This document shows, one piece after another, positions 991 through 43,133 of a DNA stretch of 64,000 nt. The notes below the pieces were generated by a model. It had not been told where the DNA came from. It did not search any database and was given only the letters and a program-made list of their open reading frames with translations. The number at the start of each line of letters is the position of its first letter. Position 1 is the stretch's first letter. The stretch is from the sequence record MT611523.1. One strand, 5' to 3'. The DNA comes from Escherichia phage DK-13. A program made the translations under genes and the position numbers.

Positions 991-1016
991 AAATAAAAAA
1001 GGGACCCGAAGGTCCC
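991..1016 (-). terminator. rho-independent terminator after gene 32
   Basis: minus strand GGGACC-UUCG-GGUCCC hairpin followed by U-run, directly after gp32 stop at 1023. Confidence 0.6.
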
Positions 1017-1022
1017 CTTATA

Positions 1023-1934
1023 TTAAAGGCCAGCCAGAAGGTCGTCAAGACCATCATCAGAAGGCTCTGGAGTGCTTGGAGCAGTCGCAGTGCGTTCAGA
1101 CTTAGCAGGTTTGCTGGAAGTGAAGTCTTCCATATCTTTATCAAAATCGTCCAGGTCAGCACCCAGTTTATCGGCTTGTGCAGCGGCTTTAGAAGCAGCA
1201 CCACCGAGAGCAGCCGTACCCATTACTTTAGAGAATTTCTTCTGATTCTCTTCAAGGGATTTAAACACCAGCAATTCATTCAGGTCAGACATTTCGTCCC
1301 AAAGTTTTTTCTGGAATGCTTCATCATTGATACCAGCGATTTCAGACTGGTTCATGAATTTGGAATCATCGTAGTTTTTATAACCGGAAACCATTTTAGA
1401 TTTCAGTACGAAGTTCGCACCTTCAAACGGACAAGTTACATCGATAGCAGTTTCACCCATGTCAACATCGACTTCAACCATCTGGTTGATTTTGTCCATG
1501 ATTTTCTTACCAAAGCGATATTTGAATACTTGGCCTTCGTTAGACGGAACTGCAGGGTCTTTAATGACCAGGATGTTAGCCCAGTAAGAAGTATTACGCT
1601 TCAGTTTACGATATTCGGATTCGTTTGTATTGTACAGGTCATTCTTATTCATGTACGCACACACAGGGCAGTTTTCATAATCGCCGTGAGTAGAAGTACA
1701 GTTTTCAATATACCATTGACCAGCATTTTTAAAGCCGTGGTTAACGAGCTTGATGAATGGAGATGGATTTTCTTCATTCTTAGAAGGCAGGAAACGAATA
1801 ACCGCAGAGCCGACACCATCAGTATCTTTCAGTTTCCATTCTTTTTTATCGTCAGAAGAGAAACCAGCACCACCTTTCAGTGCATTAAGGGAAGCAGCCA
1901 GGTCAGCAGGGTTTTTACGTTTAAACATAGACAT
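1023..1934 (-). CDS. 32: single-stranded DNA-binding protein gp32
   Basis: 303 aa; N-terminus MFKRK...[20 protein letters not shown]...AVIRFLPSK and acidic C-terminal tail resemble T4 gp32 as I recall it; synteny next to gene 59. Confidence 0.93.
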
Positions 1935-1983
1935 ATGATTTTCCTTAGATTATTTGATTTTTAGCAGTTGTTTTGATTACGTA

Positions 1984-2622
1984 TTAATTATACTTCAAAG
2001 TGATTGAAGCGATAAACTTTTGAAATTCAGAATCAAGATGGGGATTCCATCCTAATTTGAATTTATTTATAATGGAAATACCGGTCGTGTGTGTACACGG
2101 TAAACCAGTTTCTCTTGCCATAATAACTGGACCAAGTCTGGAAGTTCTATGCGGTCCTATATACCAGTCATAATATATTCCAGCATTTAACCAAACTAAA
2201 TGAGCACCTTTAGCTATTGTATTAGGATGTTCCCAAGGCAATAAACCTTTAAGGTGAGAATTTAATTTCATATTTATTTTATGTGATTCTGATTTTGGTT
2301 TACCTTTTAATGAAGACTTAAAGGTTCCACGAGCACTCGCCTTATTGAAAAACAATGGCGATTTAACCACATTATAGTGTTGATGGTAAAACTCTTCTTC
2401 TGACAACACATCGTCACACACATGCAGAATTTTAACGGTTGGTTTTTCAGACAATGCCTCAATAAAACGAGATTGTTTGCATGAAGACCAGTATTCTTTA
2501 TTATGTGAATCAATTATAACACCATTTTCAAAAGCACAATTATGCTTTGACCCAATGTAAAAATAAGGAGGCGTTTTATTTTTCAGACGAGTTTCAAATG
2601 TAAACCAATATACAACATTCAA
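1984..2622 (-). CDS. hypothetical protein (212 aa) inserted between genes 59 and 32
   Basis: ORF-track start is TTG overlapping the gp59 stop (TTGA); no internal ATG near start; weak GIY-YIG-like features (VVY...TRLKNK...YFYIGSK) that I cannot confirm. Confidence 0.5.
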   Translation of the reverse strand: MNVVYWFTFETRLKNKTPPYFYIGSKHNCAFENGVIIDSHNKEYWSSCKQSRFIEALSEKPTVKILHVCDDVLSEEEFYHQHYNVVKSPLFFNKASARGTFKSSLKGKPKSESHKINMKLNSHLKGLLPWEHPNTIAKGAHLVWLNAGIYYDWYIGPHRTSRLGPVIMARETGLPCTHTTGISIINKFKLGWNPHLDSEFQKFIASITLKYN

Positions 2623-3272
2623 AACTTACACCCTTTAACAGTCTCGATGAACAATTTACGGGCTTCAAGAGAATCGATATTTAAGATTTTCTTATAAGCA
2701 TTTAGTTTAGTTGAATACTTTTCCCAAACCAAGTCGTTAGTCTGTTCATCATGTTGGTCTATTATACCTAAAAATGAATCAAGCAAACAAAACGTTTCAA
2801 ATGAAATAACATTCGATTGGAGAAGTTTGAAAATATAACTTGTATTCACTTTAGTATTATACTCGAAAATCTCTTGGAGCGATTTGACTTCGACTTTCTT
2901 ACTGAAGTAATAGATGTTCTTTATATCATCTTCGTATACTTGTCTAATTCTTTTAAGTCGGCCAATGTATTCTCTATAAAATATCAGAGCATCGGCATCA
3001 CTTATATCGCCTATCCATGCATCCTGGTTCGCAACCAGGTTTGACATGAATATTAACGTTAATTCTTTAAGAGTGTACTTATCGCTAAGCTTTTCGAAAA
3101 AATACTTATCGCGACGTTTTTGATAAGCACTATCGGAGATTCGCATGGTCCAGTTATATTTGATAATATCATAACGACCCGAAAAATGCTGTTTGATGGA
3201 TAAGTACAGTTGGTATACTGATTTACCATTTATATATCGGTTGTTATTTGGAGGCATGCGAATCGTAATCAT
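2619..3272 (-). CDS. 59: helicase loader gp59
   Basis: 217 aa; sequence closely resembles T4 gp59 as recalled (MI.IRMP...YI.GKSVY.LYL.IKQH..G.YD.IKYNW.MR.SD.AYQKRRDKYFF.KLS.KY.LKEL); synteny. Confidence 0.93.
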   Translation of the reverse strand: MITIRMPPNNNRYINGKSVYQLYLSIKQHFSGRYDIIKYNWTMRISDSAYQKRRDKYFFEKLSDKYTLKELTLIFMSNLVANQDAWIGDISDADALIFYREYIGRLKRIRQVYEDDIKNIYYFSKKVEVKSLQEIFEYNTKVNTSYIFKLLQSNVISFETFCLLDSFLGIIDQHDEQTNDLVWEKYSTKLNAYKKILNIDSLEARKLFIETVKGCKF

Positions 3273-3562
3273 AACAAAAAGTCCAGCGTATTAGTTTTCT
3301 GTGTACGAGACATACTTGGGCGAAGCAGGTTATCATCATATGCTTCATTCATAATCTTATCAATGATTCCCGCAGGAATGTATCGTGCAAAATTACCTTC
3401 AGGAATTCCACGTTCTTCCAACCAGGCGGTCGCAGCTTCCAGATAAGACATTTCAGTTGACTCAACCATGGCTTCAATATCAAGCCCATTTTGCTGCTTA
3501 CTAATCGCCCCGGAAGGCGATTCAGTTTTCTGTGTATCGAAATTAACTAAAGAGGACATCAT
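3269..3562 (-). CDS. 33: late-transcription accessory protein gp33 (start uncertain)
   Basis: ORF-track frame 3269..3655; I place the start at ATG 3562 (MMSS...) because of GGAG SD 4 nt upstream; C-terminal ...TNTLDFLL tail; position between dsbA and 59 as in T4. Confidence 0.55.
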   Translation of the reverse strand: MMSSLVNFDTQKTESPSGAISKQQNGLDIEAMVESTEMSYLEAATAWLEERGIPEGNFARYIPAGIIDKIMNEAYDDNLLRPSMSRTQKTNTLDFLL

Positions 3563-3820: not shown

Positions 3821-4765
3821 TTAATAAAATTCAGCAATATTTGCAGTTAGTTTAGACAGACCAGACTTAACAAAGTAAGGATAAACTTTACTTTTGGCTG
3901 GGATAACGTAGTTATTATATCGTTCTAATATTGAAGCGGATATTTCCGTTGGGATAAAGTCCATATCAATCAACAATTGGTTTTCACAGAATCTATTATA
4001 TTGCTCTTCTGTTAAAAGCGTTTTCAAAACGTCATGGTCGTAATAGTTGAGTGCAATTTGTTCAAGCTCAGCTGCACGGGTTGGCGGAGTACGTTCACCT
4101 TCTTCATGAGTGTAATAAAAATCACCACGAACCTTGATGCTCGACACGTTATCTTTTTTGTCGCCTTTAACAACCTTTGTCACGCAATCCATAAGGGCAT
4201 CGCCTGATTTAGTTTTGACATATTTTTTCTGCATCGGGGACCATTGTTTCACCCCAGGGAATTTATGCAACTGGGTAAAGTCACCATCCGAAGAAACAAC
4301 CATAACCGGATGTCCGAGACTGGTGAGCAACTTCGTTAATACTGCAATATGGTCGTCTGCCTCGACTTTATCAATATTCATCACGATGTAAGGCATGTAT
4401 TTTTCCATTTCATCGATGATGATGTGCATGGCAGCATGTAGACCTTCCCAATCGAATTGAGACTCTTCACGAGCCTTTGCACGGTTTTTCTTATAATAAT
4501 AAGATTTAGTCCGGCGCCAATAGCCATTCTTCGAGTTATCAACACAAATAATTGGAATTGTATAACCAAGCTTTTTGAACTGTACGATATTTTTTCGGAT
4601 AGAGTTCAGAACCAAGTGTCTGGTCATTGCAGTTGTTACTTTCGGAAAGCCTGCGTCTTTGCCGAATTCCTGAAAGGCTGCAGCCATGATAAGCTGACTA
4701 AAATCGAGTAACTGAAAACCTTCTTTTTGACGGTCTTCTTCAGGGAGTAAAAAATCTAAATTCAT
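3821..4765 (-). CDS. rnh: RNase H (5'-3' exonuclease / flap endonuclease)
   Basis: 314 aa; motifs YYKKNR.KAREES.WDWEG, DKYEADDHIAV, SSDGDFTQLHK resemble T4 RNase H; synteny upstream of gene 34 on opposite strand. Confidence 0.9.
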   Translation of the reverse strand: MNLDFLLPEEDRQKEGFQLLDFSQLIMAAAFQEFGKDAGFPKVTTAMTRHLVLNSIRKNIVQFKKLGYTIPIICVDNSKNGYWRRTKSYYYKKNRAKAREESQFDWEGLHAAMHIIIDEMEKYMPYIVMNIDKVEADDHIAVLTKLLTSLGHPVMVVSSDGDFTQLHKFPGVKQWSPMQKKYVKTKSGDALMDCVTKVVKGDKKDNVSSIKVRGDFYYTHEEGERTPPTRAAELEQIALNYYDHDVLKTLLTEEQYNRFCENQLLIDMDFIPTEISASILERYNNYVIPAKSKVYPYFVKSGLSKLTANIAEFY

Positions 4766-29297: not shown

Positions 29298-29339
29298 CTT
29301 TCCTCTTGTGTATGGAGGTATTATAAGTCACATATTTTA

Positions 29340-29363
29340 AAGCAAAAAGGCCCGAAGGCCTTT
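29340..29363 (-). terminator. rho-independent terminator upstream of gene 39
   Basis: minus strand AAAGGCC-UUCG-GGCCUUU then U-rich tract. Confidence 0.5.
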
Positions 29364-35029: not shown

Positions 35030-35776
35030 TTAACCTCTAATCAGTTTAAAAATTGACGCGTTCAAAGGTAGACCACGTTTCAGTTTTAATTTACCAATAA
35101 AACCAATCTTCTCAAAACGCTCAAGACCTTGAATGATTTTATCATAGCAATCAAAAAGCGTTTCAGCATCAGTTAATTTCTTGGTAACTTTCCAGTCATT
35201 ACCTTTGAGCAGGACATTCAATTTAGTAAGCTCATGTCCTTCCGCAACACGGGAACCATCAATGCGAGCCTTCAGAGCAACCATTTTTAATTGGTTTTCT
35301 TTGGACTGCTCTGATTTACTCATTTGAGCATAATGCTTAACGCGATTATCACGTTTGTGCTGGATGTTCTTGATATGAGTATATGACTTTTTAATCTGTT
35401 CCCATTTCTCTGAAGTCAGATTTAACTTTTCAATCTTCTTGGCAGAGGGGCGAGCAATTTTTACAGCAACATCATCGCGACGTTGTTTAAGCTCATCCAG
35501 GGACCAATCAGAACGCATGGTATTGTATTTCTTTTTAACAGGAATAACATTACCCTTGATATAACCAATATCATTGTTAAAACGCTCTAATGATAACTTC
35601 TCACCTTCAATAGAGTTATTAAATGCTTCACCAGAATAGGCACAAACTTTTTGGTCAAGAATGTTAACCAGGTAATTGAAATCCAGGTTAAAGTCTTTAC
35701 CGCGGCGTTTAGCGGAAGCTTGAGTGTGTTCCAAACGACGTTTAACTTTCAGCGTTTTGGTTTTTGATAAAGTCAT
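35030..35776 (-). CDS. hypothetical basic protein (248 aa), at the T4 srd position
   Basis: ATG ORF between dda and modA-like gene; Srd assignment is by position and size only. Confidence 0.5.
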   Translation of the reverse strand: MTLSKTKTLKVKRRLEHTQASAKRRGKDFNLDFNYLVNILDQKVCAYSGEAFNNSIEGEKLSLERFNNDIGYIKGNVIPVKKKYNTMRSDWSLDELKQRRDDVAVKIARPSAKKIEKLNLTSEKWEQIKKSYTHIKNIQHKRDNRVKHYAQMSKSEQSKENQLKMVALKARIDGSRVAEGHELTKLNVLLKGNDWKVTKKLTDAETLFDCYDKIIQGLERFEKIGFIGKLKLKRGLPLNASIFKLIRG

Positions 35777-35932
35777 GATATTTTTCTCATCTTACGGACG
35801 ATTGAAAACTCAGTATGGATTCATTATATACTATTCATCTTTTATGTACACTACTTTTTCACCTTTAACGCTTTTATTTTTACTGTGTATAATGGTTCTA
35901 AGGTCTTTGGCCTTTTGTTAACCCAGAATACT

Positions 35933-39332: not shown

Positions 39333-39566
39333 TTATTTTATCATAACCTTTTTAGTTAAAAGCTCGTCGGGATGCCTTCTGGCGTATGAAGGGCTTTCTT
39401 TTACTGGGGTATTTGAAATAACATCACTTAATTTATCAGCTCTAGCTTTTAATTCTACGTGTTCTTTTGAATCTTTAAAAGGATGACTAATTATTTGCAA
39501 ATTAAGACCATGTAATTCATATTTAAGCCCTTCCATAAATCTTGCTGGGCACCCGTAATTATTCAT
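39333..39566 (-). CDS. hypothetical protein (77 aa)
   Basis: ATG ORF abutting the 3' end of the HNH gene; could be a separate gene or a frameshifted C-terminal part. Confidence 0.35.
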   Translation of the reverse strand: MNNYGCPARFMEGLKYELHGLNLQIISHPFKDSKEHVELKARADKLSDVISNTPVKESPSYARRHPDELLTKKVMIK

Positions 39567-40392
39567 TTTCGAACCTCTTTACCATGTTTATATAATTTTC
39601 GTCTGGATAACCTAAACTAACTGCTAACTTTCTAAAATTCACATATTTAGGTTTGTTATTACTAAGCCATAAATCTCTAAGCTCAATTTCATAATTCCAT
39701 TTAAGCTGGTTTCCTCTAGCAGTTTTGCTCAAAGTTTTTCCTTTATCTTTTAGAGCTTTTTCCGAAGACTGTTTTAATTTTTGGAGATTTAAAACTTCCT
39801 CAACAGATAAATTATTTTCTTCTGCATAGCGCGCACAAAAATCTTTTACTGTAGCTATTAGACAGTTTTTGTGGGTACCTAAAACTTCCGGATTATTTTC
39901 TTCAACCAAAACTCCCCAGTATCTTCGATAGCGAGGCATATCCCGCGAAATCCAGTCATTATACCAGAAATCAAAATTAGAATACATAAAGGATTTTCTT
40001 TTACGGAGAATGTCTTGCTCTATCCACTCCCCGCGTTTATCGGCCCATAACTTAATAGTAAGGTCTTTCTCTAAATCAGAAAGCTTCTTAAACTGGGCAC
40101 TATTTGTTAGTGTCATTCTCTGGAATGCATTAAGCAAACCCAACACCCGAGTTGAGCACAAAAGATAATGAACATATATGTGTTGGTATATAGGAAGATA
40201 CACCCTATTCCAAGGAGAGATTTTAAAATCGCTGTATTCTGGAAATGCACACTTCGGAAGTATATGATGAGCTTCCGTTTTAGATTTGGTATGGACGTTT
40301 AGTTTATACTTATCTATAATTTTTAAGTAATCATCTAAAAGTTCCCATTGCGGGAACTTTTCTTTAAGAACGGATTTGAAATTAATATCCAT
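39559..40392 (-). CDS. HNH-family homing endonuclease-like protein
   Basis: track start 40407 is TTG; ATG at 40392 with AGGA SD; HNH motif EAHHILPKCAFPEYSDFKISPWNRVYLPIYQHIYVH; inserted between 56 and soc. Confidence 0.7.
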   Translation of the reverse strand: MDINFKSVLKEKFPQWELLDDYLKIIDKYKLNVHTKSKTEAHHILPKCAFPEYSDFKISPWNRVYLPIYQHIYVHYLLCSTRVLGLLNAFQRMTLTNSAQFKKLSDLEKDLTIKLWADKRGEWIEQDILRKRKSFMYSNFDFWYNDWISRDMPRYRRYWGVLVEENNPEVLGTHKNCLIATVKDFCARYAEENNLSVEEVLNLQKLKQSSEKALKDKGKTLSKTARGNQLKWNYEIELRDLWLSNNKPKYVNFRKLAVSLGYPDENYINMVKRFENE

Positions 40393-40897
40393 TGTCCTGA
40401 CGTTCAAAGTTGTGTTTATTTTTCAAATAATAAAGTTTAAACATTTCTTCGGCTGACATATTAAGACCAATAGCCATATTGAATACAAAGTGCATAATGT
40501 CAATTAATTCAAATTTAATTTCGAGTTGGTCTTCAGGAGACATTTCTGAAATAGGTTTAGCTTGTGCTTCCAGATAACGAGCTTTCCATTTTTTCCAGAC
40601 ACCTGAAGCATCTTTTTCACCTTTAGACATTTCACCGAGAGAAGTCAAAAGTTCACGGAATTCATCATCAATACAGTCTTTCTGTTCGCGCATCCAGGCA
40701 ACTACATCGCCTGCAGTGGCCAGTTTATCCGGATGGTAGCAATAATCACGGTCATTAGCCAGACGAACCTGCAATGATTTCTGCATATCAAGCATAACTT
40801 GCAGTGGGTCAGTGCCTTCAAAAATTGCATTATCATAAGCGCCTTGAGCTTTATCAACACCAGCAATCAGTTGAGAACACTCGTTAAAATGAGCCAT
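40382..40897 (-). CDS. 56: dCTP pyrophosphatase gp56
   Basis: start moved to ATG 40897 (MAHFNEC...); ...DPLQVMLDMQ..LQ.RLAN.R.YCYHPDKL.TAGDVV.WMREQKDCIDDEFRELLTSLGEMS.GEK.AS.VWKKWKARY.EAQ resembles T4 gp56. Confidence 0.9.
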   Translation of the reverse strand: MAHFNECSQLIAGVDKAQGAYDNAIFEGTDPLQVMLDMQKSLQVRLANDRDYCYHPDKLATAGDVVAWMREQKDCIDDEFRELLTSLGEMSKGEKDASGVWKKWKARYLEAQAKPISEMSPEDQLEIKFELIDIMHFVFNMAIGLNMSAEEMFKLYYLKNKHNFERQDNGY

Positions 40898-41358: not shown

Positions 41359-42108
41359 CTAAACTTTTGCGTACTTCCAAAAATGGCCGTTTGACCTATA
41401 CATTCGGCCTGTCTTTTTATTTCTTTTACAAGCTGTGTATATATTTTGAGTATTGCCCGCCAATTGTAATAATTCCTTTGCCTCAGCTCCCGAATTATAC
41501 TTTTCAAGTATATTACCAAATTCATCGCATCTACAAACCGGTGTTCCAGTTGCCTTTCGGCATGCTTCTCGGCGCAACTTTTTCGTTTCTTCGGTTTGCG
41601 GATTTTCTTTAAATCGTCTCATTTGTGCATCGCGATTCTTTTGCCGTTGTTCATCAGTAATTGGATTATTTTGATAATACAATTTTAATGAGTTGGCTAT
41701 TTTGCTTTTGGTTTTATCAGACGCAGGGTGGTCGTTATGTCGCTTGTGTAAAGCAATTAACATTTTGTCTTTAAACTCGGATTGACTCCATAAGTTTGAC
41801 ATATGTTCACTAACGGCTTTACTATGTTCTTTTCGCATCCATTCATATTTTGCGCTATCAAATTTGTCACCACACATCCGGTGTATAGCAAACATTAATT
41901 TAGAAAGTCGATAAATTTTAAAAAGTAACAAATGCGCAATAAAATGTTCTCTTGCTGATAACAATACCAAATTATCTTCGGTGTCAGGCCCACCCAAACA
42001 CCTTGGTAGTATATGATGGGACTCCGTATAAAATGGGATATTCTTTTTGTTTAGGCCCCTTGCGAGGCCTTTGTCTATTAATTTATTATATAATTTTAGA
42101 TAATTCAT
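41359..42108 (-). CDS. HNH-family homing endonuclease-like protein
   Basis: 249 aa; HNH motif ESHHILPRCLGGPDTEDNLVLLSAREHFIAH; N-terminus paralogous to plus-strand HNH ORF at 56212; inserted between 61 and 56. Confidence 0.75.
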   Translation of the reverse strand: MNYLKLYNKLIDKGLARGLNKKNIPFYTESHHILPRCLGGPDTEDNLVLLSAREHFIAHLLLFKIYRLSKLMFAIHRMCGDKFDSAKYEWMRKEHSKAVSEHMSNLWSQSEFKDKMLIALHKRHNDHPASDKTKSKIANSLKLYYQNNPITDEQRQKNRDAQMRRFKENPQTEETKKLRREACRKATGTPVCRCDEFGNILEKYNSGAEAKELLQLAGNTQNIYTACKRNKKTGRMYRSNGHFWKYAKV

Positions 42109-43133
42109 ATTTTTGCATATTTGGATAATCGAAGTTTTGCCATTAAACCTTGTGCAATATTATCATTCATATAGGCTTCAATTTGCTCAGGCGTTGCTCC
42201 TTCCGATTTAATCATTTCATTTATATCTTTCGTATGCCACGGTGCATTGTCCCAGAACATAACAGCTTCTCCTGCATCGACTAATTTCTTCATACGTTTA
42301 ATTGTATCAGGATGTCTTGCTTCTGAATCCATCACCCATACTCTGGTTTCTGGATAAGGAACAGCTTCCAATGACAATGTTCCACCAGTTATCGCAATGC
42401 TGTTAGGGATAAACAAACTATCAATCGGACCTTCCATTACCCATACACGTTTACGCTCATCAATCTTGTCTACGCCATAGACTTTGGAAGCTTCTGGGTG
42501 AGCTTTGATTGTGATATATTTTTGTGGTGCATCTTTGCGAAGAGCTCGTCCTTGGAAAGATTCGATTTCTTTTTTGCCGTTGAAGATAGGAATAACCAAG
42601 CGTGGTTCATTCGTTTCATTCTTATACGTCCCAGGATTAACGGAGTTAACTAATGCGGGCCATTGGTTTGTAAACCATAACCGGTTCCAAACATTGCTCG
42701 GAATACACCGACTTTTTACATACTTAACTATCGGATGCGCTTCTGGTAAAGTATCGAGTCTTTCACAAAAAGCAAGCTGCTCAATAACCGGAGTTTTTTC
42801 TGGTTCTTTCGGAGTTTCAATGACTTCATTGCGTTGTCGCCCGAAGGCGTTCTCCTTATACTTCTCAACCATATATTCCCGGTGTAAATCCGGCTCAAAC
42901 TCTTTTATGTATTTGCTTATATGCGTGGAGTAGTCACAGTTAAAACATTTCACGTAAACCGCACCATCAGCCGGATTAGTATACGCCCAGAATCGAGCCT
43001 TGTGTGAATCTTTCTGGGAGTCCCCACAAACCTTGCAACGACAGTTTGCTTTAAATGTGCTCCCGGTGACTTCTCTATAACGTGGTTGATACGATAAAGC
43101 TCTGACTGCAAATTCTTTATCAATATATGACAT
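42105..43133 (-). CDS. 61: DNA primase gp61
   Basis: 342 aa; zinc-ribbon C.VCGDS...C.NC then TOPRIM-like region (...EGPIDSLF..N.IAITGG...); C-terminal IAQGLMAK.RLSKYAKI resembles T4 gp61. Confidence 0.9.
   Translation of the reverse strand: MSYIDKEFAVRALSYQPRYREVTGSTFKANCRCKVCGDSQKDSHKARFWAYTNPADGAVYVKCFNCDYSTHISKYIKEFEPDLHREYMVEKYKENAFGRQRNEVIETPKEPEKTPVIEQLAFCERLDTLPEAHPIVKYVKSRCIPSNVWNRLWFTNQWPALVNSVNPGTYKNETNEPRLVIPIFNGKKEIESFQGRALRKDAPQKYITIKAHPEASKVYGVDKIDERKRVWVMEGPIDSLFIPNSIAITGGTLSLEAVPYPETRVWVMDSEARHPDTIKRMKKLVDAGEAVMFWDNAPWHTKDINEMIKSEGATPEQIEAYMNDNIAQGLMAKLRLSKYAKI

Follow-up and report, generated by a model that had tools for sequence, protein, structure and literature searches.

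A probable Gaprivervirus version of the T4 homing endonuclease gene segG between genes 59 and 32 of Escherichia phage DK-13

What occupies the interval between genes 59 and 32 of Escherichia phage DK-13, and is it a working gene? The 64,000-nucleotide stretch analyzed here (MT611523.1; the window) carries at this place a 212-aa open reading frame (ORF) on the same strand as its two neighbors. A sequence-only reading had located this ORF at 1984-2622 between the two genes, in agreement with the ORF list, and had left it unassigned, as a decayed or divergent endonuclease or possibly something unrelated. The three genes lie as follows.

1023..1934, minus strand: gene 32, ssDNA-binding protein, downstream of the ORF, with its probable promoter within the seg 3' end
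1984..2622, minus strand: probable seg gene, SegG-family free-standing homing endonuclease, 212 aa, with a TTG start and a TAA stop at 1986..1984
2619..3272, minus strand: gene 59, helicase loader, 217 aa, the upstream overlap partner

The ORF is very probably the Gaprivervirus counterpart of T4 segG, which encodes a free-standing homing endonuclease; the gene is placed between the stop codon of gene 59 and the promoter of gene 32. T4 SegG matches it at 40.4% identity over aa 1 to 200 (tblastn, E 9e-36) in an alignment that spans both domains, and the two proteins are close in length (212 aa in the window, 210 aa in T4) and nearly identical at the N terminus (MNIVYWFTFEDRVKNKTPPYYYIGSK in T4, (M)NVVYWFTFETRLKNKTPPYFYIGSK in the window). 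Slot and strand are shared as well, and in T4 segG does lie between genes 59 and 32, as the sequence-only reading had stated, the gene order in both phages being 59, SegG, 32. Among 50,697 phage records, 364 matched the ORF (tblastn), and PHROG 7504, labeled "homing endonuclease," matched it end to end (E 2.9e-91). The comparison of the 59-32 interval across T4-like phages that had been proposed for this locus located seg homologs in the same slot in T4, Moonvirus KM16, Marfavirus Potts1, and Dhakavirus VR5. The sequence-only reading had treated the ORF as something other than segG; at 40% identity over the full length, it is the SegG homolog.

T4 SegG (gp32.1) is a demonstrated GIY-YIG site-specific endonuclease, free-standing between genes 32 and 59 (PMC2988022; PMC2330249). 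It cuts in gene 32 and causes the exclusion of T2 gene 32, according to the same two papers, through which the T4 SegG study (Liu et al. 2003, J Mol Biol 334:13) is cited here.

The gene is already known from near-identical phages. The records nearest to positions 1000 to 3300 of the window (megablast) are those of vB_EcoM_RZ (98.7%) and SP18 (98.2%), which belong to the genus Gaprivervirus and its SP18/VR7/VR20 group. The Shigella phage SP18 protein, 99.5% identical, is annotated as "segG homing endonuclease," the RZ and UPEC07 records name the same gene "homing endonuclease," and VR7 carries the annotation "32.1 putative homing endonuclease, GIY-YIG family." The label "unassigned" was therefore wrong. 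SP18 segG and the genes of RZ, UPEC07, TH22, and TH55 are the same gene as that of the window, identical at the junctions and in the 180-nt gene 59 block described below; their annotations rest on similarity. Elsewhere, SegG-like genes of approximately 32% identity adjoin gene 49 (endonuclease VII) in the T-even phages Lutter, 348Ecol098PP, JK42, G10400, and fPS-2, so the SegG family has at least one other genomic slot.

The protein divides into two domains.

2329..2622, minus strand: predicted N-terminal GIY-YIG nuclease domain, aa 1-98, with VVY at 3-5, YIG at 22-24, YWSS at 44-47, Glu76, and Asn93
2008..2238, minus strand: C-terminal helical domain, aa ~129-205, the presumed DNA-binding or target-recognition module

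The N terminus had been thought to resemble, loosely, a GIY...YIG block, and VVYWFTF...YFYIGSK is such a block: the family alignment and the structural model place V-V-Y (3-5) in a strand spanning aa 3-8 and Y-I-G (22-24) in a strand spanning aa 21-26. The alignment-based AlphaFold (AF2) model has a mean pLDDT of 84.9; both aa 1-98 and aa 130-210 reach approximately 90, aa 99-110 form a disordered linker, and its N-terminal part forms the three-stranded sheet with flanking helices of the GIY-YIG alpha/beta fold. Foldseek searches of viral models (BFVD) returned phage homing endonucleases only, several of them named GIY-YIG; against the PDB, the I-TevI structure 1LN0 ranked third at a nonsignificant E value of 3.2.

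Direct searches of the ORF against Pfam and NCBIfam gave no match at E<=10, and PDB sequence and profile searches with the ORF and its family returned noise only (RC-RNase2, E 1.1). When 1.84 billion representatives were searched exhaustively with a profile, 413 relatives emerged, most of which join the same N-terminal domain of about 100 aa to different C termini. When 136 relatives were scanned singly, NUMOD3 was found in 97, SegE_GIY-YIG in 25, and GIY-YIG in 7, with best E values of 3.3e-4 for SegE_GIY-YIG and 1.4e-3 for GIY-YIG (the curated models being Pfam PF01541 and PF19835), and no other nuclease family appeared among those scanned. A match to a curated model is a criterion of detection and not a defining property of the GIY-YIG superfamily. 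As judged from these comparisons, SegG is a divergent GIY-YIG branch that the Pfam models largely miss.

Conservation within the family follows the expected nuclease core. Y22, G24, and N93 are invariant across the 136 relatives, and Y5, P19, I23, S25, K26, Y44, S47, and E76 are conserved in at least 90% of them. The catalytic residues of I-TevI are R27, on the helix after YIG, E75, and N90. E76 and N93 of the window protein pair with I-TevI E75 and N90 in an hhalign alignment (E 0.017, probability 2.7%) that compares a 161-sequence N-domain profile with the single I-TevI sequence and is too weak for reliable residue mapping. The search for diverse I-TevI relatives gave only nine close, fragmentary sequences, and no canonical profile was built. 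No conserved Arg stands at the place corresponding to Arg27 in the family alignment, a comparison made without residue-level superposition; conserved candidates are K26 and Y44-x-x-S47, and R12 is kept only in close relatives.

The sequence-only reading had called the motif spacing atypical. GIY-YIG proteins usually have 10 to 11 residues between the two motifs. In the window protein the spacing is 16 to 17 residues, and the distance from Tyr to Tyr is 17 versus 11 in I-TevI, because a helix is inserted at aa 10-15; T4 SegG is likewise wide. The likeness to I-TevI (1LN0) otherwise lies in the GIY and YIG tyrosines on adjacent strands and in the order of nuclease, linker, and DNA binder. The two proteins differ in sequence (14% identity), in their DNA-binding domains, in a beta-hairpin at aa 30-37 after YIG that the window protein has in addition to its extra helix, and in setting, the window ORF being free-standing whereas I-TevI is intron encoded.

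The C-terminal domain resembles winged-helix/HTH DNA binders and also an F-LimI-type module of other homing endonucleases. The model thus shows a two-domain build in which a nuclease of GIY-YIG fold is joined through a disordered linker to a helical module presumed to bind DNA. Strong divergence of this domain from its T4 SegG counterpart makes a different target sequence probable.

Homologs of 209 to 214 aa are intact in the same slot in five genera, and the ORF is 99.5 to 100% conserved among five carrier phages. The dN/dS values against Potts1, KM16, T4, and VR5 range from 0.09 to 0.53 (Nei-Gojobori; dS saturated). A reading frame open by chance is ruled out by these ratios and by the intact homologs in five genera, and, on the substitution pattern, the seg gene is under purifying selection.

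How the gene is started can be read at its 5' end.

2619..2622, minus strand: TTGA, the seg TTG start over the gene 59 TGA stop, read directly
2629..2635, minus strand: Shine-Dalgarno-like AAGGGTG, 8 nt 5' of the TTG, including gp59 codon Gly214

Direct reading confirmed the earlier observation that TTG (2622..2620) is the only available start and overlaps the gp59 stop (TGA, 2621..2619) as TTGA. On the coding strand, gene 59 ends GGG TGT AAG TTT TGA (G-C-K-F-stop), and the seg frame runs across the junction as TAA GTT TTG AAT GTT GTA TAT TGG. With an in-frame TAA at 2628..2626, two codons 5' of the TTG, and the next in-frame Met at residue 118, the TTG is the sole start that keeps the conserved N terminus, whose GIY strand begins at codon 3. 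In alignment, it matches the ATG of T4 segG codon for codon. The start of T4 segG also abuts the gene 59 stop but does so as TGA-T-ATG-AAT, where the window has the 4-nt overlap (T-TGA-AT) and is 5 nt shorter. The TTGA junction recurs in SP18, VR7, TH15, and Dhakavirus VR5. In VR5, the seg coding sequence (1201-1830 of the compared segment) is annotated from an internal ATG at 1219; when the frame is read from the TTG 18 nt 5' of it, which overlaps the gene 59 stop as TTGA, the conserved NIVY (GIY) strand is regained, and the annotated start is therefore probably wrong.

The Gly codon and its AAGGG are found in the phages with a TTG start (the window, VR7/TH15, and VR5) and are absent from T4, KM16, and Potts1, which start with ATG; ORF-less relatives have AAAAACTG in place of AAGGGTG. 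A weak UUG start helped by the Shine-Dalgarno-like element, by ribosomes terminating on gene 59, or by both would fit these features of the junction, and coupling of seg to gene 59 translation is plausible from the overlap. In T4, free-standing endonuclease genes use AUG starts, except for mobA with GUG, and overlaps of their starts with the stop of the upstream gene have been taken as suggestive of translational coupling or reinitiation, which would limit nuclease levels (PMC2988022). The starts of mobE (behind nrdA, UAAUGA), segC, segF, mobA, and mobC in T4 similarly overlap the stop or end of an essential upstream gene (PMC2988022), differing from the window gene in that its UUG is preceded by a Shine-Dalgarno-like element. 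A hairpin that would sequester the ribosome-binding site and start codon was considered and rejected: its 12-bp stem appeared in one sequence context only, was not significant, was gone in another context, and had no counterpart in T4, KM16, Potts1, or VR5.

The 3' end of seg overlaps control elements of gene 32, as does that of T4 segG.

1987..2010, minus strand: MotA-box-like GCTTCA-N12-TATAAT, probable middle promoter of gene 32, its TAT AAT forming the last two seg codons
2064..2071, minus strand: TATAAATA, T4 late-promoter consensus, candidate late promoter 130 nt 5' of the gene 32 ATG

The pattern GCTTYA-N12-TATAAT occurs three times in the window against 0.09 expected, a count reached in 0 of 100 shuffles. 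The two further exact sites, at 3914-3937 and 29320-29343 on the minus strand, which is the early/middle-gene strand, are probably MotA-dependent middle promoters as well. In the seg-less phage KIT03, TTGCTTA-N12-TATAAT directly follows the gene 59 stop, and seg thus sits between that stop and the gene 32 middle promoter. The late-promoter motif TATAAATA has seven sites in the window versus 5.2 expected, a number indistinguishable from chance, and the site at 2064-2071 is therefore listed as a possible late promoter only. An Rfam search of 1800-2800 gave chance-level matches only, and a generic sigma-70/terminator scan was uninformative. Unlike in T4, no pseudoknot arms of T4/T2 type overlap the seg 3' end, and none are seen in the window gene 32 leader (1935-1983, minus strand), which has no Rfam match; this leader has the sequence CAACUG[C/U]UAA in common with the T4, VR5, KM16, IME08, and Potts1 leaders. 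T4 segG is described as a promoterless cassette in which the middle and late promoters of gene 32 are embedded and within which RNase E processing stabilizes the gene 32 mRNA (PMC2988022).

The gene is present in some members of the genus and absent from others, as is also the case for segG among the relatives of T4, and the boundaries of the insertion and of a linked flanking block can be given.

2012..2627, minus strand: 616 nt confined to ORF-carrying phages, in place of which ORF-less Gapriverviruses have the 7 nt CAAATAA
2623..2805, minus strand: ORF-linked 3' part of gene 59, putative co-conversion tract, marked by fixed differences and haplotype identity

The window-type allele is carried by five Gapriverviruses (RZ, SP18, TH22, TH55, and UPEC07) and a variant allele by two (VR7 and TH15), and at least 18 have no gene at this place. 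The indel was mapped by base-level alignment of the window, SP18, VR7, VR20, and CJ20, and the resulting length difference of 609 nt is in line with a query coverage of 73% in at least 20 records. The gene is thus polymorphic for presence and absence, with clean junctions, despite flanks that are 96 to 99% identical.

Over approximately 4.8 kb compared between five phages with and eight without the ORF, all eight clean fixed differences lie within the 3' end of gene 59 (2640-2805), and none lies in gene 32. Within nt 463-642 of gene 59 (180 nt), the ORF-carrying phages are 100% identical to one another and the ORF-less phages are about 92% identical to them, whereas directly upstream the two groups are 99.4 to 99.6% identical. 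A co-conversion tract or tight historical linkage would give a block of this kind; it represents linkage in a population and not an observed conversion event. The linked flanking haplotype suggests a recent spread of the ORF, and together with the presence-absence pattern it counts as evidence that the gene is mobile. Outgroups did not tell which of the two 180-nt haplotypes is foreign, since both are equally distant from IME08 and VR5. With no fixed differences in gene 32, a gene 32 target is not indicated in the window group. The enzyme of T4 cuts in gene 32, but the haplotype linked to the window ORF is in gene 59, and the T4 target is not simply transferable.

The variant allele shares the slot, the TTGA junction, and the GIY-YIG N-terminal domain (approximately 90% identity across ~35 residues at the start of the nuclease domain) but has an unrelated C-terminal half with NUMOD3-like repeats and a CxxC...HxxxC zinc finger, and it is flanked by another gene 59 haplotype. 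It is intact in TH15 (223 aa) and frameshifted in VR7 (1425-2170 of the compared segment), where the zinc-finger tail lies downstream in another frame.

The empty sites also differ in the end of gene 59. In the seg-less outgroups IME08 and KIT03 and in all seg-carrying phages, gp59 has 217 aa and ends in ...CK[FY]. In the ORF-less Gapriverviruses VR20, CJ20, P479, UPEC01, PSD2001, 212, P8, and VR25, it has 222 aa and ends in NCQITLQ[S/A/T]L, its frame reading through the MotA box into the promoter region; the empty site of VR20 (1496-1540 of the compared segment) corresponds to window positions 1995-2636. Because seg-less outgroups and seg carriers alike keep the 217-aa form, the empty site is the derived allele. 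It may be the scar that a deletion left when the endonuclease was lost, or it may stem from a small deletion at the point of insertion. The possibility that the cassette itself supplied the C terminus of the window gp59 was discarded, as the seg-less outgroups already end in ...CK[FY]. In the record of phage 212 (PQ765507.1), product names appear to be shifted by one gene, with the gene 32 coding sequence labeled "helicase loading protein" and rnh labeled "tail fiber protein proximal subunit."

Three alternative accounts of the gene were weighed against these observations. The frame might be a decaying or catalytically dead remnant of segG, barely translated from its weak TTG and kept for the gene 32 middle promoter that it contains. 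TTG does stand where T4 has ATG, the ORF has no Pfam GIY-YIG match and no identifiable equivalent of Arg27, the gene 32 promoter does lie within it, and the frameshifted sister allele of VR7 shows that decay occurs in this slot. However, the frame is intact in five genera with dN/dS below 1, all of the conserved family residues are present, including Y5, Y22, E76, and N93, and the spacing and residues that had suggested a decayed endonuclease are common to the SegG family, including the active T4 SegG. The near-perfect conservation in the five carriers and the signs of recent spread likewise speak against decay, and a remnant of this kind is unlikely. Taken together with the purifying selection, the retained positions predicted to be catalytic indicate that the protein is an intact GIY-YIG enzyme, and activity is predicted for it.

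A second account would make the gene domesticated and mainly beneficial to its host, either by excluding the gene 59/32 alleles of competitors or as a spacer that tunes the transcription or mRNA processing of gene 32. The marker exclusion of T2 gene 32 by T4 SegG, the RNase E processing in T4 segG, and the embedded promoter are all in keeping with such a role. The gene is nevertheless dispensable, since most Gapriverviruses do without it, marker exclusion is homing at the level of the population and not a separate mechanism, and no sequence feature tells a domesticated from a selfish gene; we consider this account very unlikely. That the ORF encodes a non-nuclease protein with a fortuitous GIY...YIG resemblance, for which the missing direct match to curated nuclease models might be cited, is effectively refuted by full-length homology to an experimentally verified endonuclease and by structural and sequence neighbors that are all homing endonucleases, with no clear non-nuclease homolog among them.

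On the preferred reading as a homing endonuclease, and by analogy with T4 SegG and SegF, the enzyme would, in a mixed infection, cut the genome of a seg-less relative near the 59-32 junction. Recombinational repair off the seg-carrying genome would then copy seg and neighboring markers into the cut genome. Presumably lacking a promoter of its own, seg would be read from the gene 59 message and translated from the weak TTG by way of the Shine-Dalgarno-like AAGGGTG, of ribosomes ending at the gene 59 TGA, or of both, which would keep the nuclease low. Because gene 32, which is essential, has its MotA box and -10 element within the last seg codons, clean deletion of seg would be disfavored. The window holds other possible free-standing endonuclease genes at 41362-42159, 39562-40422, and 35033-35791, all on the minus strand: a 266-aa ORF carries the motif ...ESHHILPRC and matches Pfam HNH weakly (E 9e-4, short of the curated cutoff), a 287-aa ORF has ...EAHHILPKC and no Pfam match, and the third candidate ORF also has no Pfam match.

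A more specific reading can be proposed for the group of the window, though we hold it, taken as a whole, to be doubtful. The target would be unlike that of T4 SegG and would lie not in gene 32 but at the 59/32 junction or within the final ~190 bp of gene 59, and the 222-aa gp59 would mark either an empty site that is "immune," being resistant to cleavage, or the scar of a lost endonuclease. As part of the same reading, a small deletion would have formed the ...NCQITLQSL end, removing the ancestral ...CKF end together with the insertion point. If this is true, the continued predominance of empty sites would be explained, the TTG with a compensating Shine-Dalgarno element drawn from a gp59 Gly codon would be an evolved setting of dosage, and a selfish gene would have altered the essential helicase-loader gene.

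For the locus itself, an apparent gap in annotation is closed by the expected homing endonuclease of segG type, intact, and this adds little that is new. For automated annotation, it is relevant that the SegG branch escapes the Pfam GIY-YIG models. The genus may offer a small natural setting in which to follow a homing endonuclease through its life cycle, as several states of the locus are seen within Gaprivervirus: intact and domain-swapped alleles, a frameshifted copy, and empty sites with a remodeled end of gene 59.
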